A DNA stretch of 64,000 nt from a plasmid. A program made the position numbers and the translations under genes. The stretch is from the sequence record NZ_CP145666.1, one strand, 5' to 3'. This document shows, piece after piece, positions 32,988-62,536 of this stretch; positions within the stretch are counted from its first letter, which is position 1; each line of letters opens with the position of its first letter. A model generated the notes under the pieces. The model saw only the letters and a program-made list of their open reading frames with translations. It was not told where the DNA came from and searched no databases.

Positions 32988-33007
32988 TACTGTATGGATA
33001 TACAGCA
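32988..33007 (+). promoter_or_regulatory. LexA (SOS) box
   Basis: TACTGTATGGATATACAGCA fits the CTGT-N8-ACAG consensus. It lies 20 bp upstream of the umuD-like start. Confidence 0.6.
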
Positions 33008-33026
33008 CCACGAAGAGCAGAGCATT

Positions 33027-33443
33027 ATGAAACTTATCCCAGTGACACAACAATCACCAGGCCAATTCCCGTTGTTCGTTGAGCCTGTCAGCGCAGGTTT
33101 CCCTTCAGTCGCTTCCGATTATGTTGATGAATTTATTGATCTAAATACTCACCTCATCAAACATCCATCTGCAACCTACTTCTTACGAGTAACAGGTTCA
33201 TCGATGGTAGAGGCACGTATTCACGAAGGCGATCTGGTCATCGTGGATAGCTCACTTGAGGCGAAAGAGGGGGATATTGTGATTGCGACCGTTGATGGTG
33301 ATTTCACCATTAAGCGGTTGCAGCTAAGCCCGGCTCCCGCGCTACTGCCAATGAATAGCCGGATGTCACCGATCTATCTGAAAGAAGGCGAAGAACTGGC
33401 CATTTTTGGCGTGGTGACCTTCATCGTGTACAAGGCCTTGTGA
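33027..33443 (+). CDS. umuD: UmuD/MucA-like translesion polymerase accessory protein (S24 LexA-like peptidase)
   Basis: [75 protein letters not shown] aligns with E. coli UmuD. Confidence 0.8.
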
Positions 33444-34708
33444 TGTTCTGCCTGGTGGATTGCAACTCATTTTACGCCTCCTGCGAGAGAGTCTTTCGGC
33501 CCGATCTGGTGAACAAGCCAATTGTATGCCTTTCGAACAATGATGGCATGGTCGTGGCACGTTCAGCGGAAGCTAAAAAATTAGGTATCCAGAATGGTGA
33601 CGTGTACTTCCAGAAGAAAGCATTCTTTGAAGCTAACGGTGTACATGTTTTCAGTTCTAACTATGCCTTGTACGCGGAGATCTCCCGTAGGGTGTGTGAG
33701 ACATTATTTAAATTCTCCAGTAATACTGAGGTCTACAGTATTGATGAAGTTTTCCTTTCGTTTGAAGGAATGCAGAAAAATTATAATTTTGATGACTATG
33801 GAAGAGAAATAAAGAAAACCGTATTAAAGAGCACCCATATACCCGTGGGGGTGGGCATATCGACAACTAAAACTTTGGCAAAACTAGCAAATAAAGCTGC
33901 AAAAACATGGACTAAAACAGGCGGAGTGGTTGATCTCAGCAGTCCAGAAAGACAACGTAAATTATTGCCATATATTGACGTAAGCGATGTCTGGGGGGTG
34001 GGCCGGAGATATGCCACCAGACTGAACAGCATGGGCATCAGGACTGCTCTCGATCTGGCCAATGCGCCAACATCGCTTATCCGTAACACATTTGGAGTCG
34101 TACTGGAGCGAACGCAGCGCGAATTGAATGGCGAGTCCTGCATAGCCCTGGAAGAGGTGAGGAAGGTTAAGCAGCAGATCATCAGCTCGCGTTCATTCGG
34201 CCAGAAAATAGAGCACTACGAAGCAATGCACCAGGCGGTGTGTGAGTATGCCGAACGTGCAGGCGAGAAGCTGCGCGAAGAGAAGCAATACTGTCGCTGC
34301 ATAACGGTTTTTATTGGCACAAGTTACTATTCGAAAACGGCCCCTTACAGTGGCCAGCAGACAGTCAAGCTGGAAAACCCCACCGCCGATACCCGGGAAA
34401 TCATTGCGGCTGCGGTCGCAGGGCTCCGGCATATCTGGCAGGAGGGATACCGATACCATAAAGCCGGAGTGATGCTATCTGACTTTTATGATAGCGCCAC
34501 CAGCCAGCTCGATTTGTTTGGTGAGAACCGACTCTTTGCCAATGGTGAAGCGTTGATGGGCGTGATGGATAGAATTAACCGGTCAGGTCGGGGGAAATTA
34601 TGGTTTGCGGGCCAGGGCATCGACAAAGACTGGACGATGCGGCGGGAGTTATTGTCACCATCCTATCTCACTAACATTAATGAAATCCCTCGCGTCAGGA
34701 TTGGCTAA
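33440..34708 (+). CDS. umuC: UmuC/MucB-like Y-family DNA polymerase (Pol V catalytic subunit)
   Basis: The 422-aa protein begins [23 protein letters not shown] and contains [11 protein letters not shown]. It overlaps the umuD-like stop. Confidence 0.85.
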
Positions 34709-34857: not shown

Positions 34858-35748
34858 ATGAATATCTCAACAACTTTCCAGACGCTGGAGAGCGAGATCA
34901 CACAACTTCGTGGAGTGCTGGGTTCCCGGCTTCCGCTCAAGGCGAGTGTCTGCGTCCTGCCAGCCGTTGCTGATGGCGAAGAAGATATGGCCATCGAACA
35001 CATCATGCCTGAGCTGAAACAGGGACACGATGCTGTCCATGCTGCCTGCGCGGCATACGCTGACCTGCATATCAGGGATGGCTATTCGCAGAAGTCCGCT
35101 CGGCGCACTACCGGCGTATTATGGTACGACAATACAGATGCGGAATTCTCTCAGCTGGTTACCCGTTTGGTGACATCCATCAACCAGCATAAAGAGAGCA
35201 TTCAACGCCACATCATCGAAAACTACGGTGGTGATCGCCGACCGGAATACATGCGCTTCAACGCGCTGCATAGCGCCTGCCCTGGTGTCATGACCCTGCA
35301 TCTCTATCGGCAGCTGCGTATGTTTGATAATGCTAACGTCAATCTGGTCAGTTTCGGCTGGAGGCAAAAGACGCTTTTTAGCAGGGTTAACAAAATCGAG
35401 TTGCTCCAGAAGATGGGCAAGGACATCGAGGAAGATGAAGATAAATCAGTCAGACTCAACTCGTTGATTAAGGCTATTGCGCGTGTACCGGAAGAAAAGC
35501 TTCGCTTACGCCGTCCGGTTAAAGTGCATCCAGCTGCAAACATCGCGATGGCTGATCCTGAACACCCCGACCAGATACTGCGTCTTTCTGCCGCTTCATC
35601 TATGCCGTTCATTATCATTCAGGATGAGCACGTGAAAATTCGGCCATTGCCAGAGTTCGTGGCCAATGAAGTAAAGCCGAGGAGTAACCGCCTCAAGACA
35701 GATGTGATCGGTATATTCCACGGCGAAAGTATCGAAATGATTCTCTGA
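34858..35748 (+). CDS. Tus-like DNA replication terminus site-binding protein homologue
   Basis: Local matches to E. coli Tus: TTGVLWYDN versus LPGVLCYQVDN, GVMTLHLYRQLRMFDN versus GLITLNAYRTLTVLHD, VSFGWRQK versus LRFGWANK, and LRLRRPVKVHP versus LKIKRPVKVQP. Confidence 0.55.
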   Translation: MNISTTFQTLESEITQLRGVLGSRLPLKASVCVLPAVADGEEDMAIEHIMPELKQGHDAVHAACAAYADLHIRDGYSQKSARRTTGVLWYDNTDAEFSQLVTRLVTSINQHKESIQRHIIENYGGDRRPEYMRFNALHSACPGVMTLHLYRQLRMFDNANVNLVSFGWRQKTLFSRVNKIELLQKMGKDIEEDEDKSVRLNSLIKAIARVPEEKLRLRRPVKVHPAANIAMADPEHPDQILRLSAASSMPFIIIQDEHVKIRPLPEFVANEVKPRSNRLKTDVIGIFHGESIEMIL

Positions 35749-35841: not shown

Positions 35842-36441
35842 ATGTTCAGCAAGGAATGTGGCGTGAAATACTTTGAATGTGCGCTCAGGTTCAGAATCGC
35901 CCCAGGTGACGTGTATGGGATCCACCAGCAACTGGATAAGGTAGTCCAGGAACGTTCTGGGTCGCGACTCCCATACACCTTCTACTCTCGCAAACAAAGT
36001 GCCTCCGACACCCAGGTTGTTCTGAGAACGGCTGTTGCACTCGGGCTCCCTGGCGAAGTCATGAAGGAAATCATGTTTGTGTCTGGCCAGAAAATTCGAA
36101 TCTGCGGCTCGCTGGCCACTATTCGACGCGAGGAAGCTGGAGGCCGGAAAAGAGAGATTTGTCCACCTGCCCATGAACTCCCGGATTATATCCACTATCA
36201 CCTGGAACGGGCCGGAGTGATCTGTGGACGGTTACGTATCGTTCGAAGCACCAAGTTCCATATTATTAAGCCCGGGAGCGTTGGCCGTACATCCCACAAG
36301 ATCATTGTACCGATGAGCCAGTACGATGCTGAATGCGTGATTGAAGATGTCGGCGCACTTGAACAGGCATACGCTTTCGGGATCGGCAGAAAGCGGATAT
36401 TCGGCTTTGGCTATATGAACAGCATCGAAGTGCTTTCCTGA
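35842..36441 (+). CDS. Cas6e (CasE/Cse3)-like RAMP endoribonuclease homologue, orphan
   Basis: The 199 aa equal the length of E. coli Cas6e. The N-terminal DVYGIHQQL resembles the Cas6e catalytic-His region DLYQLHQGL. The C-terminal glycine-rich loop GIGRKRIFGFG fits the GhGxxxxxGhG signature (GIGPAKSMGCG in Cas6e). Confidence 0.5.
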   Translation: MFSKECGVKYFECALRFRIAPGDVYGIHQQLDKVVQERSGSRLPYTFYSRKQSASDTQVVLRTAVALGLPGEVMKEIMFVSGQKIRICGSLATIRREEAGGRKREICPPAHELPDYIHYHLERAGVICGRLRIVRSTKFHIIKPGSVGRTSHKIIVPMSQYDAECVIEDVGALEQAYAFGIGRKRIFGFGYMNSIEVLS

Positions 36442-39995: not shown

Positions 39996-40547
39996 ATGAC
40001 TGAAGACAACGCCGGTAGTGTTTCTGGAAAAGCACAGAACGCCCCAAAAGCAAATGCCCACCTGGACAGGCTCTTTGATTTCATTGTGACAGAAATCAAA
40101 GAGCAGGGTGCAGCACCGTCTTACGAGCAGATCTGTTCTTCTCTGGGGTATTCAAAAGGGCTCGTTTCCCGGCGTATCCGGCAGTTGCATGACCAGGGAC
40201 GAATCATTATCGATGGTGAAAGAAAGTCTATGACGCTGCGCGTAGCGAAAGGACAAGGTCATGATGACATTGCCGAACTCCCGGACATGACCAGTGACAG
40301 GAAAGCAATCATCACGTATGTCAAAAAATACATGAACAGAAATGGTGGCCGTGGGCCATCAGTTCACGCAATAGGGAAAGCGCTCGGCTTCTCGAATAAC
40401 AAGGCGCGTAGACATGTGGACTATCTCGACGAAGTAGAGAGGGTACGTTACAGCCCTCATCTTAATGAAGTAATCGTTATCAATCAGGGTGATTACGTTA
40501 AAATTACCCAGGACAACGATGAACCACCGAGCCCGGCAGAAGGTTAG
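39996..40547 (+). CDS. Putative DNA-binding protein with two LexA-N-terminal-like winged-helix repeats
   Basis: Two wHTH-like repeats are present: PSYEQICSSLGYSKGLVSRRIRQLHDQGRIII and PSVHAIGKALGFSNNKARRHVDYLDEVERVRY. Confidence 0.45.
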   Translation: MTEDNAGSVSGKAQNAPKANAHLDRLFDFIVTEIKEQGAAPSYEQICSSLGYSKGLVSRRIRQLHDQGRIIIDGERKSMTLRVAKGQGHDDIAELPDMTSDRKAIITYVKKYMNRNGGRGPSVHAIGKALGFSNNKARRHVDYLDEVERVRYSPHLNEVIVINQGDYVKITQDNDEPPSPAEG

Positions 40548-42416: not shown

Positions 42417-42740
42417 ATGCCTAAAGACGATGTTGCAACAATCATAATCCAGAATGGGTTGACGCATAAAGTAAATGTGATCTGCAAATTCAGCGCACAA
42501 ATCGACAATCAAATGTTCTCATTCATCATCCATCGCACATTAAGCGTATGTCGATATGCGCTTGTCTGTAAGGCAACAGGCCAAAGAATTGCAGTTCTTG
42601 ATACCAGTCGAGTAAAGGCACTTGGTATGGAAGCAGCAGGTAAACTAGCGCTATCAGATCTGGCCTCATCATTAGGCGAGACTAGACTTGCTGCGATTCT
42701 GACAAATTCACTTCAGAGCAGGAGCGCGGCAAGTGAGTGA
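42417..42740 (+). CDS. Hypothetical protein
   Basis: A 107-aa ORF that overlaps the next gene's start by 8 bp. Confidence 0.4.
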   Translation: MPKDDVATIIIQNGLTHKVNVICKFSAQIDNQMFSFIIHRTLSVCRYALVCKATGQRIAVLDTSRVKALGMEAAGKLALSDLASSLGETRLAAILTNSLQSRSAASE

Positions 42741-43803
42741 TTTAATCGACGATAACTTTATTATTCCTGCACTGAGTAGCATAGCAGGCATCACCACGCC
42801 ACTATCAGGACAAACGTACAGGAACGCTCCAGATATCGACATATCTTGCTATGACGTGATAATCATTTGCCTTAGCGGCGGAAAAGACTCCATAGCCTGC
42901 CTTCTCCACTTAATTGACATCGGGGTCGATCTGTCCAGGGTGGAACTCTGGCATCACGATGTTGATGGCCGCGAGGGAAGTACTTTAATGGACTGGCCAT
43001 TTATGGCCGACTACAACCGCAAAATAGCTTCAACATTTCAGATACCGTTGATGTTCTCCTGGCTTCAGGGAGGAATGGAAGGTGAGATGCTGAAAGAGAA
43101 TGGCTACAGTCGCCCGCAATGTATCGAAACCCCAGATGGATTAATAATCGCGGAACGTGATATCCAGCGAAGCACTCCCGCCACGCGACTTCGGTTCCCT
43201 CAGCAATCACCAAGCCTTAAAACACGTTGGTGCTCATCAGCACTAAAAATTGATGTTGGTCGGCGAGCACTCACAAATCAGAGACGCTTTGACGGAAAAA
43301 AGGTGCTTTTTATTACGGGGGAAAGGAGAGCGGAAAGCTCTAATAGATTCAATTACTTACAACTGGAGCCACATACCAGCAGTTGCAAAAAAAGACAAGT
43401 TGATGCCTGGAGGCCAGTACTTGAATGGTCTGAAGAACAAGTCTGGGAGATTTTAGCAAAACATCGTGTTACAGCCCCAGTACCGTATCGTCTTGGATGG
43501 GGTCGCAGTTCATGCTTAACGTGTATATACAACAGTGCTCGCATATGGGCAACCATCAAACATTATTTCCCCGAGCGTATTCACGCAATGGCCAACTATG
43601 AAAACCGCTTTGGGGTCACTATCAGTCGTAAACGAATAAATGTTCTGGATCTAAGCCAGAATATTTCTCCTATTAATATCACGGATGAGGAAGCGCTGCT
43701 GCAAGCGGTAAATCCGGTCTATACATTGCCCGTCATTAACATGTCAAAAGAATGGGTGCTACCTGGTGGGGCGTACAACCGGGAGAAATGCGGGTCAGAC
43801 TAA
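42733..43803 (+). CDS. PP-loop ATP pyrophosphatase of the PAPS-reductase / DndC / SspD-like family (GTG start)
   Basis: The PP-loop IICLSGGKDSIACLL (SGGxDS) lies near the N-terminus. The protein is 356 aa. Confidence 0.65.
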   Translation: MSDLIDDNFIIPALSSIAGITTPLSGQTYRNAPDIDISCYDVIIICLSGGKDSIACLLHLIDIGVDLSRVELWHHDVDGREGSTLMDWPFMADYNRKIASTFQIPLMFSWLQGGMEGEMLKENGYSRPQCIETPDGLIIAERDIQRSTPATRLRFPQQSPSLKTRWCSSALKIDVGRRALTNQRRFDGKKVLFITGERRAESSNRFNYLQLEPHTSSCKKRQVDAWRPVLEWSEEQVWEILAKHRVTAPVPYRLGWGRSSCLTCIYNSARIWATIKHYFPERIHAMANYENRFGVTISRKRINVLDLSQNISPINITDEEALLQAVNPVYTLPVINMSKEWVLPGGAYNREKCGSD

Positions 43804-48991: not shown

Positions 48992-49143
48992 TACATTTCG
49001 TCTCTTTTCAGGTAAACAAAATGGAAACACAATGTATTTTCATTGCAGGTTTCAAAAATTGTTTCACTCTGGGCCATACATGTTTAGTATGGGGACATAA
49101 CAAAGAGAACGCTGGCGAGTACGCTGGCATAAAGATCACCTTT

Positions 49144-49170
49144 CCCGGCCTGGCCGGGATTTTTTTTGTC
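49144..49170 (+). terminator. Rho-independent terminator
   Basis: The stem CCCGGCC-TGG-CCGGG is followed by ATTTTTTTT. Confidence 0.6.
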
Positions 49171-49313
49171 TGATGTGCCGTCCTTCTCACCACAAACTTA
49201 ATATCCTGACTATTTTTATGGATGTGCAGTGCAATTATTTAACGAATTACCATTCGTCACCAGACCGGACAGGCTGATAATAATGTCATCCGATACAGAG
49301 CTGGGGAGGGTGT

Positions 49314-49871
49314 ATGACTAATCGTGGCTATAGCAAAGTAATTATCGAAGGTACTGTAGGCCGTGAGCCTGAAATCCGACAACACCCTACCCACGGCATC
49401 TACGCAAAGATTTATGTAACAACATCTGAGTCCTCAATGGAGGATAAATCTGGTCTGGAGAAAATTACGGAAGAACACTATCAGATCATTTTGCTTGGTC
49501 AATTTGCTGATGTGGCCCGCAATCATCTTCATGTCGGGACAGGAGTGTACCTGGAGGCCCAATTGCGTACCCGCCTAATCAAGGAGGATGGTAAAGAACG
49601 CTTCTTTATGGACGTACTTGTCAACCCCGTGAAGGGGCATGTTCTTCGCAAAGTCAATGTAGGCGGTAATAAACTGGTGAGTCGTCACCTCCAGCAGAAC
49701 CGTGGGCAGGATCACCGGCAGAATACCAGTTATAGCCGCAGGCCACAAAACACGAACGCGAGGCCAGCAACACCACGCAACTCGCCCCCAACAATGGAAA
49801 ATTATTATTTGGGAAATCAGGATGAAGTTCCAGGAAGCACTGGTGCTTATGGAACTGAGATAGCCTTTTAA
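49314..49871 (+). CDS. ssb: Plasmid single-stranded DNA-binding protein (SSB)
   Basis: The OB-fold N-terminus KVIIEGTVGREPEIRQHPTHGIYAKIYVTTSE...ITEEHYQIILLGQFADVA aligns with SSB. It has a Gly/Pro/Gln-rich linker and a short acidic/aromatic C-terminal tip. Confidence 0.75.
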   Translation: MTNRGYSKVIIEGTVGREPEIRQHPTHGIYAKIYVTTSESSMEDKSGLEKITEEHYQIILLGQFADVARNHLHVGTGVYLEAQLRTRLIKEDGKERFFMDVLVNPVKGHVLRKVNVGGNKLVSRHLQQNRGQDHRQNTSYSRRPQNTNARPATPRNSPPTMENYYLGNQDEVPGSTGAYGTEIAF

Positions 49872-49926
49872 TGATTAGCAGCATATCTGTTTTAATTTGT
49901 ATCATAACTAATGGGGAATTATTGCC

Positions 49927-50280
49927 GTGAATGAATTCAATAACGCACTCCAGACGATACTGGAAAATGGGTCTATGTCATATGGCCAGGCTGCTATTTA
50001 TGCCGGTGGTGCAATTTGCGTTGCGGCCCTTTTTTCGGCGATACTCAGAAGTGGACTACTGGTAATTTTGGGAATTGTCTCAGGCTTTTATCTGTTCAGT
50101 CTCAACACTCCAGACAGTACACTGGCGTATACTGCTGCTGCCTCAGACCGTCTCATCGAGCAGGTTAAAGCTGTCGGTGGATGCGCCACTAGACACATTG
50201 AGGATGCGCAAACTCTGGGTATCATCATAAAAAATGGCGATGTTATCGAGATAGCAAAGCAGTGCGGTATTATAAAATAA
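49927..50280 (+). CDS. Hypothetical membrane protein
   Basis: The 117 aa include two predicted TM helices. Confidence 0.35.
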   Translation: MNEFNNALQTILENGSMSYGQAAIYAGGAICVAALFSAILRSGLLVILGIVSGFYLFSLNTPDSTLAYTAAASDRLIEQVKAVGGCATRHIEDAQTLGIIIKNGDVIEIAKQCGIIK

Positions 50281-50557
50281 TAACCGTAGCATATTATGAT
50301 TGATGAATGCCTGAATGGTAATCTGCTCGCGGATTACCATTATTTTTTGAGATGTCTTATAGAACTTATCTAAAATTACATACGACTGTCATGACAGTAT
50401 AAGGTCTTTATGAAAAACGTCGTCAAAACTTTACTACCCTCAGTGAACACTGGTGATCAAGACGAAAGCGTAAAATCGGATACGCTGACTGGCACTACTA
50501 AACCCTGCGACCACGGACTGGTTCATAATCATCTTTTAGGGCAGGAGGCCTGTTACT

Positions 50558-51238
50558 ATGCCAAACACTAACGACTCGCTGACAGGACTCAACGTCGAGC
50601 TCGTTGGTGCATCGAAACAAGAGTTTACTCTCCTCACTGAAAACCATCTGATGCGCCGCATCATAGTGGCTTTATCTGAGTTAATGCGTAACGCGGAAGG
50701 CGTGATGATTGATTCTCATGTTTACCCGTGGGATCAAGTTCTCCCTGCTGCGATGGACATTCCATCATCCAACGCTTCTGATGAAGAGATACAGAACTGG
50801 ATGATCAGTGCCTGTAAGGAGTGGCAGTGCGAATACAATCGCCGGGTTCAGTCGTTTACCGCATCAGAAGTAAAAAGCAAAAGCGACACCGAGAACGATA
50901 ACCTATTCCTGCTGAATATCACCAACCTAGCCCATATGCTGATTGACCGGTTACTGCCGTTTGTCAGTATCGAGGAGATTAATCATGAGGATCCAGATTT
51001 ACTCCCCCAAGTTATTGATATCGTGAATTATATGGTTGGTGTTATAAATGGTACAACCAGCACACAACAAGTCAGACAAGAATTGTTTACTGCCGGTGCT
51101 GATGACGCAGTATTTGCACTCAAACTAAAGCACAAAGAGCTAACCAGCCGGGGTGAAGATGCTGGATGGCTTGAAGAGGCAATGAAGATAATCGAAGAAA
51201 ACAAACGCCAATCCATCGACTTTATGCAGCGCAGCTAA
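50558..51238 (+). CDS. Hypothetical protein
   Basis: A 226-aa ORF. Confidence 0.4.
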   Translation: MPNTNDSLTGLNVELVGASKQEFTLLTENHLMRRIIVALSELMRNAEGVMIDSHVYPWDQVLPAAMDIPSSNASDEEIQNWMISACKEWQCEYNRRVQSFTASEVKSKSDTENDNLFLLNITNLAHMLIDRLLPFVSIEEINHEDPDLLPQVIDIVNYMVGVINGTTSTQQVRQELFTAGADDAVFALKLKHKELTSRGEDAGWLEEAMKIIEENKRQSIDFMQRS

Positions 51239-51265
51239 TCGTTCCCATAATAAAAGGGTAATGCT

Positions 51266-51580
51266 ATGAGTAAACATCTGTACTGTATTAAGGGTGTTTT
51301 AAAACCCAGGAAATTTTCTGTAAGTCTGATAAGAAATAAACTTAGCTCATTTGGTTTAAGGGGAAGTACTCTTCGTAGCGAAACCGCTCGCATTCTTGCC
51401 GGGCCAATAGATGGTATTAAGGGTACGTATCCCTTCGGCTGGTCAGAAGAACATTTTGACCGCAGGATGAAACGCATATTCATTCGCGCCGGTAATGCTT
51501 CCAGACTTTCTGATAATCGTCCATTTGCATTAAAACGACGCAGCGCTTTAACTATCAGTAAAAAGTATCTTTCTGTGTAA
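51266..51580 (+). CDS. Hypothetical basic protein
   Basis: A 104-aa ORF. Confidence 0.3.
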   Translation: MSKHLYCIKGVLKPRKFSVSLIRNKLSSFGLRGSTLRSETARILAGPIDGIKGTYPFGWSEEHFDRRMKRIFIRAGNASRLSDNRPFALKRRSALTISKKYLSV

Positions 51581-51597
51581 CCACCAGCAGACGAGTT

Positions 51598-51960
51598 TTA
51601 CTCGTCTGCCTGGCCCCATGCCTCTAATCTTCGCACCCGAAATGAAGTTGCCTGGAGTTCTCCTGATGAAGTTAACTCAAATGAAACTGTAAGATCGTTT
51701 TTGTTCCGGTACTTCCATACATAGCCATTTTGCTGCAATGTTTTGAGTGACTTACGTAGGTTGGGCTCAGCTACATCCTGGCTGTCTGGAACAGAGTTAA
51801 TAAACCCCAGCAACCTGGTGAATGGCACTATCGCAGTGCCTTTTTCTTTGCACAAAAGAAGAAGTACCAACGCATCCTTCTGAATACGGGAAAAGCGCTC
51901 CAGGCGATGTTCAGTACCATCTCCCTGCATATTGGCATTGTTCATAATCAACCTAATCAT
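51598..51960 (-). CDS. Hypothetical protein, possibly winged-helix
   Basis: A 120-aa ORF. Confidence 0.35.
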   Translation of the reverse strand: MIRLIMNNANMQGDGTEHRLERFSRIQKDALVLLLLCKEKGTAIVPFTRLLGFINSVPDSQDVAEPNLRKSLKTLQQNGYVWKYRNKNDLTVSFELTSSGELQATSFRVRRLEAWGQADE

Positions 51961-52078
51961 ATGGGATATGATTAAGGTTAAAAAACACCCCCCGTTTTGT
52001 CACCCTTTTTTTTTCTTACTCACCACTTAAAGCAGTAAGCTCAGTTCGATAAATCTGAATTAAATAAGGCGAGGTTAT

Positions 52079-52492
52079 ATGAAAACGAAATTATTGCTGG
52101 CGCTAATTGCGGGATCGACTTTCTGCATCAATATTGCTGAAGCCAATATTCCTCTTAGAGCAGATGGAAGTCCGGCAGCGGGGCAGACACCAACTCAGTT
52201 CATTCAGCTTAAAAATGAATGTCCTGAATGCGTCATGGTCGCAACTGATGTAGTAAAGATGCGTAGCGATAGCTGTAAACAGCAGGCATCCATCGATTCT
52301 ACAATCCTACAGGATCCTGTTTACGCATATCTCAACAGTATCCGTCTGGTAGTTGCCGGGAATGGTGGTTATGCAAGTCCAATCTATACATCCGCCCGTC
52401 AGGTCGTAGCGTCAAACATCAATTGCAGTGATGCAAACGACTGGGTAGCGAGAAGTAAAACGGTAATGGATAACACCTTCAAAACGCCGTAA
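52079..52492 (+). CDS. Secreted hypothetical protein
   Basis: The signal peptide is MKTKLLLALIAGSTFCINIAEA. Confidence 0.45.
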   Translation: MKTKLLLALIAGSTFCINIAEANIPLRADGSPAAGQTPTQFIQLKNECPECVMVATDVVKMRSDSCKQQASIDSTILQDPVYAYLNSIRLVVAGNGGYASPIYTSARQVVASNINCSDANDWVARSKTVMDNTFKTP

Positions 52493-52554
52493 ACAATCCC
52501 TGAATATTTCGTTGCAGTAATGCTATCCCGTAGTATGACGTTAAAGGCGGAGCT

Positions 52555-52881
52555 TTGAATCGGGAAAAAATAACTACTGCACTTAGAGGTATTTATATGG
52601 GTCGTCACTTTACTGGTCTGATTGATAGTTCGCAGCAAAATTTTACAATGCCAATCCGTCCGTATGGACGGAGCCGCATGGCTGCAAAATTAAAAGGAAT
52701 CTCCCGATTGAAAAAATCTGAAAAGCATGACGATGAATATCCTGATGAACTCTGGAAATTTATGAGTCCTTCAGAGAAAGCTAAATTTCTGGTCGCGGAT
52801 GTATTTTCACGCAGTAGTAAAGACTCTTCCGCCATTCAACCGGGAGAACATAAGCAAAAGGAGCATGATAATGAGCACTGA
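52555..52881 (+). CDS. Hypothetical protein
   Basis: A 108-aa ORF. Confidence 0.3.
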   Translation: MNREKITTALRGIYMGRHFTGLIDSSQQNFTMPIRPYGRSRMAAKLKGISRLKKSEKHDDEYPDELWKFMSPSEKAKFLVADVFSRSSKDSSAIQPGEHKQKEHDNEH

Positions 52882-53215
52882 TAATTTACTAGCAGAACTC
52901 ACTTCAAAAACAGGCCTGACAGAAACGGAACTTAATCGGCAGGCATTGATTATCGGTTTGATGGCATTGTGCCACCCGGATGCTATTGCCGGTGATTTGG
53001 TGAGCGCGGCACTTACGGGGTCATACTCAGATAGTACTGATAAACTACTTACCCGTGGTGATAACGCATCAGACAGTGTGTTGATGTCCATGCGTATCTT
53101 ACTTCACCGGTTGAGTAAGTATGAAGGGTCTGATGGCAAAGTAGGTCAGATCAATAAAATGATGCACCGACTCGGCTACTTTAAGGCATCCGATGTGTTA
53201 CGCGAGGCTCAATAA
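52871..53215 (+). CDS. Hypothetical protein
   Basis: An ORF preceded by GGAG. It begins MSTDNLLAEL. Confidence 0.3.
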   Translation: MSTDNLLAELTSKTGLTETELNRQALIIGLMALCHPDAIAGDLVSAALTGSYSDSTDKLLTRGDNASDSVLMSMRILLHRLSKYEGSDGKVGQINKMMHRLGYFKASDVLREAQ

Positions 53216-53228
53216 AGAGGCTCAATTT

Positions 53229-53528
53229 ATGTTCACCATGACGAATTTCGCGTCCAATATTCTTGACATGGTTTTTCTATCAGAAATGGAAGGGGAACTC
53301 ATTTATATAAAAGCGCTTAGCGGCGTTACTGGTTACGTTCCTCAGATCCATCTTTTCCGCCTCCAGCTTATCGCATTTGATATAGGTTGGTACTACGAGT
53401 ACAGATTGAATTCAGGCAACCTCATTATAAAGGAAATTGTTGAGGCCATCACATCTCTTGGATGTGCTTTAAATGAATACCAATGGCAGTTCGCGTTTGA
53501 ATTAGGTTATCGCCGTCACCACAAATAA
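53229..53528 (+). CDS. Hypothetical protein
   Basis: An ORF whose start is uncertain. Confidence 0.25.
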   Translation: MFTMTNFASNILDMVFLSEMEGELIYIKALSGVTGYVPQIHLFRLQLIAFDIGWYYEYRLNSGNLIIKEIVEAITSLGCALNEYQWQFAFELGYRRHHK

Positions 53529-53615
53529 ACTTCATTTTTTCATAATTTGCTATTCGTCACTTGATTGACCGGGGGTACGATTAATTTAACACGGATAATT
53601 ATGGGAGACAGTAAA

Positions 53616-54884
53616 ATGACAGACGCATCTACAATAGACGCAGTTCAACCAAAGGCAAGACGCTTATCATTTAAAGAGCTTCCAGGGTTTGATATTTCTG
53701 CTGAAGCACTTCTCAAAATTATCGAAATGCCGTGTATGGTTATTCGCCGGTCTCCTGCAATGAAAGTACTGGAGATGATCACGCTGCGGTTACGTGGGGA
53801 TTGTCTTTCTGCCCTTGGCATTGACTTAAACTCTGCCCAAATTACCAGTAAAGGGACGGTATCGGGGGGCAATGGTGATATGGACGTATCAGTACCTGCA
53901 ACACAACTCTTTTCTTTAATCCGCAACATGCGCGGCGAAGATGAAATTAACGTCCGCTTCCATGCGGCAAAAAACCATCTTGTCATTCGCACCGACAAAA
54001 ACTCCTATAACATCCCGGTTTGCTTAGACCATATACCCGAAATTCAGGCTGAGACGCTGGAACATAATTACAGCGTTTACTTTCCAACGCAGATGCTGAG
54101 TCAGATTATCAAGCGTGTCAGCCACGCTGCGGCTCAGAACGATGTCCGCTTTTATATGAATGGGGTCTACCTCGGTATCGATAATGGCCAATTTATTGCT
54201 GTAGCCACTGATGGACATCGTATGGCCGTCAGTTCTCATGATATCGACTTCAGCGATGACGTGGGCGATGAGATTCAATCTCCGACAGCTCCTACCTCTA
54301 TCAGTAACACGAATGCAGGTGTGATTTTACCCAACGGGGTTTTCCCCGTGCTCCATAAAATCCTGAGCGGTAGCCAGGGTCAATTCAAAATTGACTACAG
54401 CAACCGTAACCTGACATTTACGCTCGGAAGCCATACAGTCATTTCAAATCTTGTCGATGGCCGTTACCCGGACTGGAAGCGCGTGGCCAGCACGGTAGCC
54501 AAAAATACTGAACTGTTTAAGGTTGATCCTTCTGAACTCACCACCGCACTAAAACGCGCAACCCCATTGCTTAAAGAGGGCTCGCCAAACAACACCAGTG
54601 TTTGTGTGATGTCATTCAAAGACAACGCCCTACAGCTTAAGTCGCCCGGCTCAAATGCAATCAGTTGCAAAGAGGTGATGGACATTGCGAAAGAGGCAGG
54701 CGAGCCCGAAACAATTGTTGATATCGGTATGAATGCCGATTACCTCCTGGAATCACTGGCAAGCCTGGGGGCGTGTTCGGAAGAAGGAGAAGCCGCACAG
54801 ATTGCTTTGCGTGATACAACGACCGGCATATTGATTTCAGTAAACAAAAACAATTACGACATCATCATGCCTGTCCGTGTCTGA
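53616..54884 (+). CDS. DNA polymerase III beta sliding-clamp (DnaN) homologue, plasmid-encoded and divergent
   Basis: Local matches to E. coli DnaN: RFYMNGVYLGIDNGQFIAVATDGHRMAV versus RYYLNGMLFE...LRTVATDGHRLAV, VDGRYPDWKRV versus VEGRFPDYRRV, and GMNADYLLESLASL versus GFNVSYVLDVLNAL. The total is ~420 aa, with GGAG upstream of the start. Confidence 0.7.
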   Translation: MTDASTIDAVQPKARRLSFKELPGFDISAEALLKIIEMPCMVIRRSPAMKVLEMITLRLRGDCLSALGIDLNSAQITSKGTVSGGNGDMDVSVPATQLFSLIRNMRGEDEINVRFHAAKNHLVIRTDKNSYNIPVCLDHIPEIQAETLEHNYSVYFPTQMLSQIIKRVSHAAAQNDVRFYMNGVYLGIDNGQFIAVATDGHRMAVSSHDIDFSDDVGDEIQSPTAPTSISNTNAGVILPNGVFPVLHKILSGSQGQFKIDYSNRNLTFTLGSHTVISNLVDGRYPDWKRVASTVAKNTELFKVDPSELTTALKRATPLLKEGSPNNTSVCVMSFKDNALQLKSPGSNAISCKEVMDIAKEAGEPETIVDIGMNADYLLESLASLGACSEEGEAAQIALRDTTTGILISVNKNNYDIIMPVRV

Positions 54885-55034
54885 CAAAACGCTCTCGTTT
54901 TGTCGGCCTTTTCGAAATAGCCAATTTCATGGGCGTGATAACGTTAAAACAAGCTTCCTGACGGGATGGCTATATGCCATCTCGCTCCCATTGGTCGCGA
55001 TCACTGCGTCCTAATATTCTGGAGCCAGAATGAA

Positions 55035-55856
55035 ATGAAAAGCGTTCTGAAGTGGGTAGGAGCCAAACACAACATTATGGCAAGTCTTAAGCATGTACTA
55101 CCGAAAGGTGGTCGGCTTATTGAGCCCTTTGGCGGTTCAGGCGCTGTAATGATGAATACGAATTACCCAGAATACATTTTGGCCGATATTAATAGCGACC
55201 TGATCGATACATACCAGAGTATTTTTAAGTCGCCTGAAAAGGTACTTTCTGAGCTTAAACGCCTTTACTGTCTCGGGCGTTCTGAGGACGCCTATTATGA
55301 GCTGCGAAGCCAGTTCAATAATCATGATAGTGCAAGTGACACTCAAGCTGCTCTGTTTATCTATCTGAATAGGTTTGGCCATCGCGGACTATGCCGATAC
55401 AACCGGAAAGGCATCTTTAACGTCCCCTGGGGTTATTACGCCAACCCCTATCTCCCAGAGACAGAGTTATACGCAATGGCTGAGAAAATGTCCTCAGCAA
55501 CTTTACTTTGCGCCAGCTTCCAGACCACGCTATCAATGGCCCGCCCGGGTGATGTGGTGTATTGCGACCCACCATATGTTAATCCCGGCAGATTCACGGC
55601 TTACCATGCCAGCGGTTTTACACCCGCTATGCAGATTGAGCTTACCAAACTGCTCCAGTTGCTGCCTGAACGCGGGGTTCATGTCATCGCATCATGCCAC
55701 GATGCGCCTGATATTCGTGAGCTTTATCAAGCCTTCGCTATTCATGGTGTGACTGCCCGGAGAAGCATATTTAAAGGCAGCGGGGATGGGAAAAAAGCTT
55801 CAGAAATCTTCGCGGTCAAATTAGCGGATAACTCGAAAAAGGGAGCTGCGGCATGA
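55035..55856 (+). CDS. dam: Dam-family N6-adenine (GATC-type) DNA methyltransferase, orphan
   Basis: The protein begins MKSVLKWVGAKHNIMASLKHVLPKGGRLIEPFGGSGAVMM (motif I) and contains DPPY (motif IV). Confidence 0.85.
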   Translation: MKSVLKWVGAKHNIMASLKHVLPKGGRLIEPFGGSGAVMMNTNYPEYILADINSDLIDTYQSIFKSPEKVLSELKRLYCLGRSEDAYYELRSQFNNHDSASDTQAALFIYLNRFGHRGLCRYNRKGIFNVPWGYYANPYLPETELYAMAEKMSSATLLCASFQTTLSMARPGDVVYCDPPYVNPGRFTAYHASGFTPAMQIELTKLLQLLPERGVHVIASCHDAPDIRELYQAFAIHGVTARRSIFKGSGDGKKASEIFAVKLADNSKKGAAA

Positions 55857-56083
55857 AACGCTTCCATTGTTCTGAAAAGCTGCATAACCCAGAGACTGAG
55901 AAATTTTGTCAGGATATCGCCGAACAATATCGGACAGCACCTGATATTGCCGTGGCGCAGTTTAAACAAGTGCTGAGCTCTAAGCCTCTAACTTACTGGG
56001 AGTGTGTCGTGATCCGCGAGCGTGTCTCTGACCTTATTAAAATTAATCAAGCAACAGCTGAGGGCCACGATGAGCCAATTTAA
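55853..56083 (+). CDS. Hypothetical protein
   Basis: A 76-aa ORF that overlaps the dam stop. Confidence 0.3.
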   Translation: MKRFHCSEKLHNPETEKFCQDIAEQYRTAPDIAVAQFKQVLSSKPLTYWECVVIRERVSDLIKINQATAEGHDEPI

Positions 56084-57053
56084 ACCCAAAAGCCTTGTAG
56101 TCTACCGCATCCAAAAAGCTCTGGAATTAGACAAGCTGGATGAACAGTTAAGTGAGTTGAAATACACTCCCTGCGGGCCTAATGATATGGCACGGTCAGG
56201 ATGGATCCCGCCATTGGGTGAAGATGTCGAGCTGTTAAAGCATGAGTCGAATAATCTCATTCTTCTGACTGTTAAGCACGAATCGAAAATACTTCCTCCC
56301 GCGACCATCAAAGAAATTGTGCGAACCCGGGTTCAGAAACTGGAGAAAGAGCAAAACCGCAGGCTAAAGAAAATGGAGATCCAGGCCGTCAACGATGCCG
56401 TGCTCGCTGAGCTCATACCAAAGGCTTTCAGCAAATACAGCACTACAAACATTTGGGTGGATACTAAATCACGTCTACTGCTTGTTGAGACCACCAGCCA
56501 TAAAAAAGCAGATGATGTAACAGCTTTGCTACGTAAAACTATTGGCTCACTTCCAATTATCCCATTCACGCTGGAAACGCCGGTAGAACTGACGTTAACA
56601 GAGTGGGTCAAAACAGGAAGTCTGCCGCCTGGCCTAGCTTTATGCGACGAAGCCACGCTCAAAGATGTGCTCGAAAACGGGGGGGTCGTTACAACAAAAC
56701 GCCAGGATTTGATATGTGATGAGATCGCTCATCACATCGAGGCCGGAAAGCTTGTGACAAAGGTTGCACTGGGCTGGATGAACCAGATGTTTTTCATCCT
56801 GAATGACAATTTCATCTTTTCACGACTGACCTTTACGGAAGAACTTATTGAACAGAACGATGACATTTCGCCAGAAGATCACGCCCAAAGATTTGATGCC
56901 GATTTCGTTTTGTTTACCTCTGTTGTTATGGAGGTTCTGGACACAATGATAAAAGCCCTCGGGGGTGAAAGCCCAGGACTCATCACAACGCCGTCAGACG
57001 AACAACAAGGTGTCGCGGCAGAAGCCAAACAACCAGAAAAAACCTTCCATTAA
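56070..57053 (+). CDS. rdgC: Recombination-associated protein RdgC homologue
   Basis: Matches to E. coli RdgC: TPCGPNDMARSGWIPP versus TPCGSQDMAKMGWVPP, LETPVELTLTEWVKTGS versus MENPIELTLTEWVRSGS, and QRFDADFVLFT versus QRFDADFILMT. Confidence 0.8.
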   Translation: MSQFKPKSLVVYRIQKALELDKLDEQLSELKYTPCGPNDMARSGWIPPLGEDVELLKHESNNLILLTVKHESKILPPATIKEIVRTRVQKLEKEQNRRLKKMEIQAVNDAVLAELIPKAFSKYSTTNIWVDTKSRLLLVETTSHKKADDVTALLRKTIGSLPIIPFTLETPVELTLTEWVKTGSLPPGLALCDEATLKDVLENGGVVTTKRQDLICDEIAHHIEAGKLVTKVALGWMNQMFFILNDNFIFSRLTFTEELIEQNDDISPEDHAQRFDADFVLFTSVVMEVLDTMIKALGGESPGLITTPSDEQQGVAAEAKQPEKTFH

Positions 57054-57064
57054 AGGGCTGAGAG

Positions 57065-57943
57065 ATGATTACAGCTACAGAACTCCAAGAGTTATCACGC
57101 CAGGTTGAAAATGCTAACATTGCCCGAGCCCTGGCAGTTAAAGAGTTGGTTAAAGAGACAAGAGATCGTCAGTTTTCATTGTGGGCGCTATTTATTGGTC
57201 TCTTCAGAGAGACACCGGCGCGAAAAAAGCTGAACGAATGTGAATTGCATCTTAACCTGCTGCTGCCAAAATGCAGGAGCATCTTTCTTCAATACGTAGT
57301 TATGTCCTCGTTGGAAGAAATTTCGAAATCACCAGATTGTGAGATTTATCAGCATCTAGTCAACTGCTGGAAAGAAGCTCAGATAAAATATAACGAGTCA
57401 GGCAGACGACTCAAACTTGCAGAAAATGCCCGTGAACTATTAAAAACAGCAAAGGATGAATGTAATAGTGCTTCCACAACTGAATTTCTGGATATGGTTA
57501 CTACCAGTAAAGCAATATCCATACTTTCAGCAATAGACACATCCTCTGCGAGTAGTTCGTTAAAGAGAGCTATGGGTGCGCTTAAGCGATTAGCAGATGA
57601 AATGCCTGCCCGGCAATCACCTATTGATTCAAATTTACCAGATGACACGCTTGATCTGTTTGTCGATCTGACTATAAATCCTGTTATCGATATTCTCTCC
57701 TGGTTAAATATTGAAAAGCTGGATAATGCCGAAGTGCAGTGCAGCAAAGCCTTAAAGAAACTTCAGACGTTATTAGGACAACTGGGTGCTGAGCATGATT
57801 TGAGAACTAAGGATTATCAATCTCAATTAGATACGCTTAAGAGAATTGAACAACCATACATCAAAAAGGTGATGCGGCATATACCCGAAAATATGAAGTT
57901 CAAGGAGCCTGAGTATCTCCAGACTATAGGAATGAACCCATGA
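57065..57943 (+). CDS. Hypothetical coiled-coil protein
   Basis: A 292-aa ORF. Confidence 0.4.
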   Translation: MITATELQELSRQVENANIARALAVKELVKETRDRQFSLWALFIGLFRETPARKKLNECELHLNLLLPKCRSIFLQYVVMSSLEEISKSPDCEIYQHLVNCWKEAQIKYNESGRRLKLAENARELLKTAKDECNSASTTEFLDMVTTSKAISILSAIDTSSASSSLKRAMGALKRLADEMPARQSPIDSNLPDDTLDLFVDLTINPVIDILSWLNIEKLDNAEVQCSKALKKLQTLLGQLGAEHDLRTKDYQSQLDTLKRIEQPYIKKVMRHIPENMKFKEPEYLQTIGMNP

Positions 57944-60707: not shown

Positions 60708-60826
60708 GGACTTCCGCCGTGCTATGTACTTCACGGTATCCCCAAATATCCCGGCTTATGTAGTTCGTCGATTTGCTTCGTCACCTGCCATACCTGTCTC
60801 ATAATTTCTCTATTTGGAGAAATCTG

Positions 60827-62536
60827 ATGAACCTACCGACAGCTGTATTAGCGAATAACGATGAAAATGAATCAGACGTCCTCAGCCTTTATGCTAATCC
60901 CGTAGACAGTCAAAGTGGCCTCATTGAACATGACGGCTTTCAAAAACTAAATGCCATGCGCGATCTGCTGGTGGAATACAACACAACACTGAAGCACATG
61001 CAGGCCATGTATGATGCAGTGATGCGGAACCGGCATGATGAAGCATGGCGCATGTTCTGTGATTCTTGTGACAATTCCATCAAATATACGCTGGCTGTAG
61101 AAAATTTGTTCTGTATAGAACGGGCCCGCTGTGCTCTCGATGAAAAGTACTGGCAAAAGCTGCTCGATCTGACCGGCGTAAAACCATTTATGCCCACCGA
61201 AAGATACGATGACTGGAACGAAGGATTGAGGGCATGGCGAAAATCATCAGAATCAAATTTTGAGAAGCTTAAGCCTGTACCCTTCAACGAAGAAAGTATC
61301 TTTTCTACCGCATTCGCATTGAATGAAGAGAAAAAAGACTACTTCGCCCAGATGGTTCATGGTGTGTTTGAAAAGCTCTCCGCTCTGCATAAGACTAACC
61401 GTGCCCAGGGCTTCAGCAACAAACTCATCATAGCCAGCTGCTTACCAAGTAGAGATAACCGCAGATCCTATGACTATCTCAACTATTTTAATGACCTTCG
61501 TAAGGTTATTGGACTGATGTATGGACGAAGCGGTGCTGAGGATGTGAATTCGGCTGCGGTCAAAGAGTACATGATGAGTAACCCTGGCGAATGGGTAAGT
61601 ATTGATAACGATAGTCTTAAAGTGAAGGGGTTTATTAACGGCAATGTGCATATCCTGATTGAGGAGGAAACTTGTGACAATCTCAATCTGGTACTATCCC
61701 ATTTAATGCCAGGCTGCATTCCTCTCGATCGCCGATACACCACCGGCCATAACTCCGCAAGAACTGTAAAAACCAATGAATATCGGTCGCAGTTGATATC
61801 ATTCTCTGCTGTTAACTCCTTAATATCATATGCCACTGACCATTTGAACGCGGGCAAACACCTGTCACCGGGGCCGCACACTTTTATCCTGCGGGACAAC
61901 CAGTCTGTTAGTGAGAAAAAAGAACTGGTGAACATATGGGAGTCATTGGGTGCTGTCAGAAGATATAGAGAAGTATATGACTTTGACTTTAGCCCCGTTG
62001 AAGCATTCAAACTTCTGGCATTACATGGTTCTATACCTGACCGCTATACGCACCAGTTCTATGCAACGGTCGGAGAACTCCAGAAACGAGCAATTGATGA
62101 ATGTATGGTGGCTTCAGGTATGCGTTTGCTGGAACCGAATATCGGTCTTGGTGCGCTACTGAAAGGGTTACCAGAGGGGGTGGATGTTACTGGTTTTGAT
62201 ATACACCCCGCAGCTGTTGCAATTACTGGCCTGCGCTGGAACGTCACCCTTAATGATTTTCTATTGGTCAAGCCTGAAAATACCGGCTTGTTTGAAAGAA
62301 TTCTGATGAATCCTCCATTTAGTGACTCACGCTGGATTGCACATTTTCAACATGCGATGAGATTCCTGAAACCGGGAGGACGCTTGATAGCAATACTGCC
62401 AGGGAGCGCAAAGGAGCATCTTTTAACCCGAGAAGCTGGGCCCGGTTACGACATCAATATTCTGGGTTGCTATGACAACGCCTTTGAAGGAACCGCAGAA
62501 TCCATAAAACTTTTCTCCGTTGATGCCCATGAATAG
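60827..62536 (+). CDS. Large N6-adenine DNA methyltransferase with a ~430-aa N-terminal domain of unknown function
   Basis: The C-terminal 150 aa carry motif I-like LLEPNIGLGALL and motif IV NPPF (ILMNPPFSDSRW). No recognisable target-recognition domain follows. Confidence 0.65.
   Translation: MNLPTAVLANNDENESDVLSLYANPVDSQSGLIEHDGFQKLNAMRDLLVEYNTTLKHMQAMYDAVMRNRHDEAWRMFCDSCDNSIKYTLAVENLFCIERARCALDEKYWQKLLDLTGVKPFMPTERYDDWNEGLRAWRKSSESNFEKLKPVPFNEESIFSTAFALNEEKKDYFAQMVHGVFEKLSALHKTNRAQGFSNKLIIASCLPSRDNRRSYDYLNYFNDLRKVIGLMYGRSGAEDVNSAAVKEYMMSNPGEWVSIDNDSLKVKGFINGNVHILIEEETCDNLNLVLSHLMPGCIPLDRRYTTGHNSARTVKTNEYRSQLISFSAVNSLISYATDHLNAGKHLSPGPHTFILRDNQSVSEKKELVNIWESLGAVRRYREVYDFDFSPVEAFKLLALHGSIPDRYTHQFYATVGELQKRAIDECMVASGMRLLEPNIGLGALLKGLPEGVDVTGFDIHPAAVAITGLRWNVTLNDFLLVKPENTGLFERILMNPPFSDSRWIAHFQHAMRFLKPGGRLIAILPGSAKEHLLTREAGPGYDINILGCYDNAFEGTAESIKLFSVDAHE

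Follow-up and report, generated by a model that had tools for sequence, protein, structure and literature searches.

A divergent beta sliding clamp and its conserved neighbours dam and rdgC on large IncA/C-like plasmids

What does a plasmid do with a sliding clamp of its own? The question is raised by a stretch of 64,000 nt from the plasmid record NZ_CP145666.1, which we will call the window; coordinates are window positions unless another record is named, and the + strand is the strand shown. The window contains a gene for a divergent homologue of DnaN, the beta sliding clamp, close to genes for SSB, a Dam methylase and RdgC. A preliminary description, made from the letters alone, had recognized these four genes, all on the + strand, and their coordinates are right. 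They are listed here together with a small open reading frame (ORF) which lies between two of them; L numbers are our labels for other DNA records.

49314–49871, + strand: ssb, a divergent SSB with the C-terminal tip ...GTEIAF (PF00436, TIGR00621)
53616–54884, + strand: dnaN homologue, divergent beta sliding clamp of 422 amino acids (Pfam, TIGR00663, AF2/Foldseek)
55035–55856, + strand: orphan Dam-type (D12 class) N6-adenine methyltransferase of 273 amino acids (PF02086, TIGR00571)
55853–56083, + strand: orf76, 76 amino acids, phrog_5072 (E 1e-14), overlaps dam and rdgC; kept in L002, L003 and L018
56070–57053, + strand: rdgC (PF04381, 312 bits; NF001462)

The arrangement dnaN-dam-rdgC is real, it is kept by selection and it is already annotated. 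Positions 49000–57200 are found with 100% identity in about 98 PLSDB plasmids of 190–450 kb, from Citrobacter, Klebsiella, Enterobacter, Escherichia, Salmonella and other hosts, and NCBI's pipeline already annotates ssb, dnaN, Dam and rdgC in them. In the literature library that was searched we found no account of what a natural DnaN encoded by a plasmid, or a dnaN-dam-rdgC cluster, does; a match to 'dnaN2' was an allele of multilocus sequence typing (MLST) and not a plasmid clamp. The explanation which we favour, tentatively and at a little less than even confidence, is that these genes are a block of the conserved plasmid backbone with accessory functions in replication and maintenance, which would serve the vegetative replication of a large, low-copy plasmid with many hosts, and which is not one machine.

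We will start with the clamp. PF00712, PF02767 and PF02768 are found with 36.7, 83.3 and 35.2 bits, each over its cut-off, while TIGR00663 of NCBIfam ('dnan') is passed marginally, with 142.5 against a cut-off of 137.65. The protein aligns over its full length with the solved clamps of P. aeruginosa (E 1e-27) and E. coli (E 1e-20). The clamp motifs from which it had been recognized are present: AVATDGHRM in residues 195–203 and LVDGRYPDW in residues 279–287. A monomer model obtained with AlphaFold2 (AF2) from an alignment of 39 sequences has a predicted local distance difference test (pLDDT) of 91.7 and a predicted template modelling score (pTM) of 0.85. Foldseek places this model on the beta clamps of E. 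coli and P. aeruginosa in the PDB with E 1e-34, template modelling (TM) scores of 0.91–0.93 and a root mean square deviation of 2.1–2.4 A. The three-domain clamp fold, which the preliminary description had named as a check, is predicted, and by this model the protein is a genuine three-domain beta clamp.

The comparison with chromosomal DnaN (1MMI and 2POL of E. coli, 6AMS of P. aeruginosa) gives both common and different features. The fold, the pocket, the MPxR C-terminus and an acidic protein with a positive channel are shared. On the other hand the identity is only 22–24%, and the plasmid clamp has a 24-residue N-terminal extension which ends in LPGFDI, invariant in its clade. It also has insertions in domain II (the PxAP loop) and in domain III, and changes in the ion pairs of the interface, in I272 and in the SNEK loop. 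A further difference is that it is encoded without any annotated clamp loader or Pol III gene on the same plasmid.

Its relatives are few. A word-indexed search of 5.8 billion proteins gave sequences with 100, 81, 56, 56, 54, 52 and 45% identity; all the rest have 28% or less. A profile search of 1.84 billion representatives gave 20,801 DnaN-family matches, in which the clade is made up of three full-length and three fragmentary representatives; their scores are 466–740 bits, against 146 bits for the next match. By these sequence comparisons the clamp is a member of a tiny, isolated clade found only in plasmids. The statement that plasmid clamps are uncommon was roughly right: a DnaN homologue of any kind is present in 383 of 72,556 PLSDB records (0.5%), mostly megaplasmids and a few of chromosome size. 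By host, 126 of them are Pseudomonas megaplasmids, 74 come from Citrobacter and 27 from Providencia. There are also 77 phage records with a DnaN homologue.

The clamps of other mobile elements, such as pBT2436 (Pseudomonas), pVb1762 (Vibrio), Ralstonia phage GP4 and Rhizobium phage 16-3, are only 22–26% identical to the one described here. Their neighbours are different too: a RepB gene beside the Vibrio clamp, a PRTRC system and a sigma-like gene in pBT2436. In the latter the clamp gene (L008 8578–11277) is directly followed by the 'sigma factor-like' gene, which recalls the clamp-activated late sigma factor of phage T4. Among the matches listed there is no clamp from IncA/C or SXT/R391 elements other than an unrelated one in an IncC-typed Vibrio plasmid, in a search which was not aimed at that family.

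Which surfaces of the clamp have been kept? Residues were mapped to the numbering of E. coli beta, with a reference sequence that had been checked to be the same as that of 1MMI. The hydrophobic site for QL[SD]LF-type motifs, between domains II and III, has 20 of its 25 positions identical or conservative in all seven clade members of the alignment; R152, Y154, VATDGHR170-176, P242, R246, V247, N320, Y323, M362, P363 and R365 are kept in the seven of them. The pocket for clamp-binding motifs is canonical, as judged from the alignment. The dimer interface is changed on both sides throughout the clade: K74 is replaced by Q/H, R105 by S/V/I, E298 by N, E300 by I/V and I272 by P; E301 is variable (S/I/E/A). 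L273, E304 and an aromatic residue at 106 are retained there, and the SNEK loop is rewritten. The six helices which line the channel have a net charge of +5 and the whole protein of -10, compared with +6 and -11 in E. coli. From these features we infer a DNA-encircling clamp with a canonical pocket for its clients and a private dimer interface.

A stronger form of this idea would be an 'orthogonal' clamp, in which a universal pocket is combined with a redesigned dimer interface and loader loop; it would never mix with host beta and may open or load differently. We consider it unlikely. If true, it would provide a private pool for the plasmid's forks, its DnaB and its Pol V in any Enterobacterales host.

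The canonical pocket leads to the question of which proteins could use it. Two features upstream, a Pol V-like pair of genes and a Tus-like gene, had been associated with the cluster, and UmuC (33440–34708) and the Tus-like gene are borne out by Pfam.

32990–34708, + strand: LexA box followed by umuD-umuC (Pol V-like), with UmuC IMS domains
34858–35748, + strand: Tus-like terminus-binding protein (PF05472, E 5.5e-45; under both NCBIfam equivalog cut-offs)

UmuC has the motif QLDLF in residues 356–360, and no other strict pentapeptide for clamp binding occurs in the approximately 240 kb of plasmid DNA scanned; Dam, orf76, RdgC and DnaB do not have any. From its sequence UmuC is a plausible client of the clamp. 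It had been suggested that a divergent clamp could selectively load the plasmid's Pol V or other partners; developed further, the clamp would be dedicated to UmuD'2C and would tune the mutagenesis due to the plasmid. The uniqueness of the UmuC motif speaks for such a dedication, as does the presence of umuDC in the Proteus relative pPvSC3. However, no selectivity for the plasmid clamp is visible, since the UmuC motif (QLNLF in E. coli UmuC) and the clamp pocket are both canonical. The regulation also differs: a perfect LexA box, CTGTATGGATATACAG, lies at 32990–33005 and overlaps the start of umuD, while the only other LexA boxes in the window belong to integron integrases (3127 and 11721). The dnaN unit does not have one, and its control by the SOS response was rejected for this reason. 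Furthermore umuDC is about 19 kb from dnaN in the window, in pPvSC3 it is found beyond the other end of the block, and it is common on plasmids without a clamp. Selective loading of Pol V is unsupported, and a clamp dedicated to Pol V appears quite improbable to us. The other suggestion of the preliminary description, that the clamp buffers differences between host clamps during broad-host transfer, is plausible.

Two observations concern this upstream region. For an E. coli-type Ter site, the expected partner of a Tus protein, only a match at chance level was found. About 7 kb downstream of umuD, in 39996–40547, there is a protein of 183 amino acids with a LexA-type DNA-binding domain and no full match to LexA.

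We turn next to the neighbours of the clamp gene. Dam scores 185.6 bits with PF02086 and 250 with TIGR00571, for which the cut-off is 115; it aligns in full with E. coli Dam 2G1P (residues 6–267, E 1e-65) and has the DPPY motif; its predicted target is GATC. There is no restriction enzyme gene beside dam; its neighbours are dnaN and orf76. It is the sole gene of the cluster with a match in PADLOC, and its best match there is 'orphan MTase'. RdgC scores 386 with NF001462 (cut-off 330) and matches E. coli RdgC 2OWL over its full length (residues 7–301, E 2e-94). By alignment both proteins are related to their enterobacterial counterparts over the whole length. In L017 (12438–13658) orf76 and RdgC are joined in frame in a single protein of 406 amino acids, whose two segments are 38% and 64% identical to the window proteins. 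This fusion suggests that orf76 and RdgC are a functional pair: orf76 is probably a partner of RdgC or an extra N-terminal domain of it.

SSB is more divergent. Its OB-fold domain is found in residues 7–105 (PF00436, 47 bits) and TIGR00621 is passed narrowly, with 55.4 against 53.95. The acidic tip DDDIPF is absent from the window protein, which ends in ...GAYGTEIAF. The SSB tails vary across the family: DDPPF is found in pPvSC3 (L002 7261–7782), while the Klebsiella plasmid (L003 2609–3172) has DDDIPF plus 16 residues. In L018 (5598–5978) the ssb gene codes for 126 amino acids, the OB-fold only.

Is the presence of these genes side by side an accident? The order (ssb)-orf117-orf226-regulator-orf137-orf114-dnaN-(dinG)-dam-orf76-rdgC-DUF2726...DUF4942 is conserved in five diverged lineages of IncA/C-like (MobH) plasmids, which are collinear and whose clamps are 81, 52, 51, 45 and 36% identical to that of the window. 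The recurrence of the gene order in them indicates that the clustering is not due to chance. Plasmids of Proteus, Providencia and Moellerella, including pPvSC3 (L002), are syntenic with clamps 51–53% identical, and a Klebsiella plasmid (L003) is syntenic with a clamp 36% identical. Three metagenomic or assembly contigs are also syntenic (clamps 81, 52 and 45% identical). Two related lineages have dinG as an additional gene after dnaN and before dam. The genes are under purifying selection: in the comparison of the window with L012, a lineage with a clamp 95% identical, the ratio of nonsynonymous to synonymous substitutions (dN/dS) is lowest for rdgC, at 0.048, with 0.095 for dnaN, 0.11 for dam and 0.13 for orf76. 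These genes are maintained and are not decaying.

The four genes recognized at first are not a single transcription unit, as it is apparent from the other features of the block:

49143–49159, + strand: intrinsic terminator ahead of ssb, 7-bp stem with 6 G-C pairs followed by T8; predicted to stop upstream transcription
49927–50280, + strand: orf117, predicted membrane protein, predicted to be co-transcribed with ssb in a short unit; kept in L002, L003 and L014
50314–50341, + strand: strong intrinsic terminator after orf117
50558–51238, + strand: orf226, conserved acidic protein; kept in L002, L003 and L014; its AF2 model (pLDDT 53) is unusable
51598–51960, - strand: small winged-helix-like regulator, divergent from the dnaN unit (weak SarA/Rot match; phrog_12817 'transcriptional regulator'); kept in L002 and L014
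52079–52492, + strand: orf137, secreted-looking, with a signal-peptide-like N-terminus; 45–51% identity in L002, L003 and L014
52871–53215, + strand: orf114, small ORF upstream of dnaN; homologues in L002, L003 and L014, and an ORF of the same length in this slot of L018
57065–57943, + strand: orf292, fast-evolving; variable position, with rdgC on one side and the DUF2726 gene on the other; not present in L002, L003 and L018
57940–58542, + strand: DUF2726-like gene whose start overlaps orf292 (PF10881, weak); kept in L002, L003, L017 and L018
60681–60699, + strand: strong intrinsic terminator (7-bp stem, then a T-run), at which the long unit is likely to end

The ssb gene is cut off from dnaN by two strong terminators and by the divergent gene of the regulator, so that a single operon or cassette of four genes was rejected. 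There is instead a predicted long + unit from about 52.0 to 60.7 kb, with orf137 (probably its first gene), orf114, orf99, dnaN, dam, orf76, rdgC, orf292, the DUF2726 gene and an HNH gene. Starts overlap in dam/orf76, orf76/rdgC and orf292/DUF2726. The genes dnaN, dam, orf76 and rdgC lie between one pair of terminators and are predicted to be co-transcribed. A near-palindrome, AACCTAATCATAT-GGG-ATATGATTAAGGTT, at 51950–51979 over the start of the regulator gene, is a candidate operator. No repeated regulatory element was found in 33–64 kb of the window, and a scan for GCCC..GGGC gave terminators only. Common control with the transfer genes was rejected: the AcaCD box of IncC plasmids (PMC4207636) is at or below chance in the window as well as in the tra region, and a de novo k-mer search in 11 tra-promoter regions gave nothing above shuffled sequences.

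The uncharacterized ORFs of the block give few clues: in Pfam and PHROGs only phrog_5072 (orf76) and the weak matches of the regulator were obtained. In particular orf114 does not match any family in these two collections, nor does orf226 in Pfam, PHROGs or PADLOC. Compared with L012, orf292 has 77.5% amino acid identity and a dN/dS of 0.27, while its neighbours have 92–98% identity; it is possibly an arms-race gene.

We will now consider the plasmid as a whole, with the features of the complete replicon described on pCF1807-1 (227 kb). The family is that of the large IncA/C-like plasmids of the pKPC_CAV1321 type, with a MobH relaxase, an F-type pilus and an FlhDC-like activator. The transfer genes of pCF1807-1 are those for the MobH relaxase, mobI(A/C), traD, DUF4400, traLEKBV, dsbC, traC, traWU, traN and traFHG. 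The plasmid carries in addition an AcaB-like gene, an FlhC-like activator and a second ssb, accompanied by recT (bet) and exo. The transfer backbone, the AcaB-like and FlhC-like genes and ssb-recT(bet)-exo are shared with IncA/IncC plasmids and SXT/R391 elements (MobH, regulated by AcaCD/SetCD), and untyped 'IncA/C-like' relatives are recognized in the literature (PMC11493245). The present plasmid differs from IncC in that the AcaCD box is not enriched and in that it has a RepB-type initiator with iterons.

More replication genes are found outside the window. DnaB (L010 360–1772) shares about 80% identity with the protein of a chromosome-like record from E. coli and about 74% with its counterparts on E. 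coli plasmids of about 95 kb; a clamp-bearing relative from Moellerella has a dnaB 76% identical to it. A second, larger gene of the PAPS-reductase family adjoins dnaB. A DinG helicase (L009 16599–18671) and ParAB are also encoded. The RepB-type initiator is flanked by more than 30 iterons TCACTACCRTTGTCA (L010 9060–13530, about 222.5–227 kb of pCF1807-1), which form two arrays with 21-bp spacing and a large cluster downstream of repB. The intergenic DNA on the origin side has 17 GATC sites in 1.57 kb, against about 5.6 expected (about threefold), which hints at a Dam-sensitive initiation. Backbone genes are nearly all on one strand, with a positive GC skew along it. The idea of a replisome-accessory group is strengthened by dnaB, dinG, the RepB/iteron origin and the second ssb-bet-exo.

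The map of pCF1807-1 bears on a different role, which we consider unlikely: an establishment module acting in the recipient right after conjugative entry. SSB would coat the entering strand, the clamp would speed the synthesis of the complementary strand, Dam would block restriction and RdgC would damp RecA and the SOS response, as PsiB does. Leading regions classically contain ssb, an orphan methylase and an activity against RecA (PMC11541004). The genes have all the same orientation, DUF4942 and PAPS-reductase-like genes are nearby, and umuDC often borders leading-region islands. However, the position is not the expected one. In IncA/C plasmids the oriT directly precedes mobI (PMC5587640). 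On the map of pCF1807-1, mobI is found at 169.9 kb and dnaN at 61.9 kb; whichever way round the circle the distance is taken, 105–119 kb separate the block from the predicted oriT. No strong hairpin resembling a single-stranded DNA promoter was found upstream of ssb (z = -2.1). Placement in the leading region was rejected on these two grounds. Clamps and RdgC are also unmentioned in the leading-region survey PMC11541004. Downstream of mobI and the predicted oriT (L009 4944–23056, 170–188 kb) there is a run of small ORFs on the same strand, including a Lar-type restriction-alleviation gene. This run looks more like the true leading or anti-defence region than the block does.

The nearest precedent is phage P1. 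It has ssb, ban (DnaB), hot (theta), humD (UmuD') and hrdC (RdgC), the latter adjoining dmt, a GATC methylase (PMC10695390, PMC4713147). The accessory genes of P1 are individually non-essential in a CRISPR interference (CRISPRi) screen (PMC10695390), and a clamp gene is not among the P1 genes covered there. P1 and the present plasmid are both large, low-copy extrachromosomal replicons which duplicate accessory functions of host replication and repair, with RdgC and Dam genes adjacent or overlapping. They differ in the order of these genes, hrdC then dmt in P1 and the reverse, dam-orf76-rdgC, in the plasmid; also one is a phage and the other a conjugative plasmid. P1 is not known to have a clamp gene of any kind. 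By analogy, the cluster would be a case of the same strategy, followed by a conjugative plasmid of the IncA/C-like family and extended by a clamp. The Proteus relative pPvSC3 also carries a homologue of theta.

A similarity to P1-like elements is also seen in RdgC, which is about 45% identical to that of E. coli plasmids of about 95 kb. RdgC homologues are present on 1,221 PLSDB plasmids, about 600 of them from E. coli; among the matches listed they are mostly non-mobilizable and of about 95 kb. One of these plasmids appears both among the RdgC and among the DnaB matches. In pE2863-2, a P1-like plasmid of this type, rdgC overlaps a long dam of the P1 Dmt kind, with 762 amino acids against 273 here.

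How might the block work as a set of accessory replication and maintenance genes? It would supplement host functions, as Ssb, Ban, Hot, HumD, HrdC and Dmt of P1 are thought to do. The host clamp loader would load the plasmid clamp, whose clients would be the host Pol III and proteins with the motif, including UmuC. The clamp would form homodimers and would not mix with host beta, giving a private pool of clamps; a homodimer of its own is proposed because the host-type ion pairs have been lost together on both sides of the interface. Dam would keep the plasmid GATC sites, enriched beside the iteron origin, methylated in any host. RdgC, probably with orf76, would keep RecA off plasmid DNA, and SSB would be a separately transcribed, dispensable member.

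Several points weigh against this explanation. Dam, RdgC, SSB and DnaN are already supplied by the usual hosts, so that a benefit of further copies is not obvious, and the steps just given are read from sequence. The synteny may be due merely to the common descent of a collinear backbone. A Salmonella-associated lineage (clamp 56% identical) has the clamp among unrelated genes, without dam or rdgC, and L017 has no ssb in the block. Because of such lineages the link dnaN-dam-rdgC is frequent but not obligatory, and ssb is its loosest member; obligatory co-occurrence was rejected on the clamps without dam or rdgC in L015/L016 and on the absence of ssb in L017. A clamp 24% identical to that of the host may resist opening by the host clamp loader, and the helix and loop which are distorted by the delta subunit (272–278 in E. 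coli) are rewritten in the plasmid clamp. Finally, the channel has 11 K+R residues against a mean of 15.4, lower than in all but one of 33 chromosomal clamps.

The last two points, in a clamp whose pocket is kept while its interface is rewritten, are also what one might expect of a clamp with no role in replication, acting as a decoy or hub. It could sequester Hda, MutS/MutL or Pol IV, replace host beta under a clamp-targeting toxin or antibiotic, or tether Dam and RdgC to DNA. Extra dnaN copies give self-resistance to producers of clamp-binding antibiotics, which counts in favour of such a role. So does the position of dnaN directly upstream of dam, with dam, orf76 and rdgC overlapping at their starts. 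On the other side, the channel helices have a net positive charge with a pattern like that of E. coli beta, and the model has the crescent shape of the E. coli monomer, with its high TM scores. Tethering is not favoured by Dam, orf76 and RdgC, which have no strict clamp-binding motif, and the clamp does not match any defence family in PADLOC. We regard a decoy or hub as quite improbable, to the same degree as a clamp for Pol V only.

Some other features of the window should be mentioned. Positions 1 to about 30000 are a mosaic multidrug-resistance region (class 1 integron, ISCR1, IS26, Tn3-type), which matches thousands of unrelated plasmids. An orphan ORF resembling CasE/Cas6e is found in 35842–36441; it scores 23 bits with CRISPR_assoc, narrowly missing the cut-off, and is called Cas6/Cse3/CasE by PGAP. 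It has no CRISPR array or further cas genes nearby. The block is flanked by a PAPS-reductase/DndC-like gene (42733–43803) and by the DUF4942 gene (60773–62536).

What would the presence of a clamp mean for these plasmids? The genes may be individually dispensable, like their counterparts in P1; the block would then be an ordinary case of a large mobile element which duplicates the housekeeping of its host. A diverged clamp with its pocket kept and its interface rewritten would in any case be a tool for studies of clamp dimerization and loading. For antibiotics directed against the clamp, it means that a mobile element carries their target a second time. KPC is among the resistance genes which this plasmid family moves across Citrobacter, Klebsiella, Enterobacter, Escherichia and Salmonella: if the clamp, the helicase, Dam and RdgC aid replication in many hosts, they would be part of the success of the family and also targets for plasmid curing.

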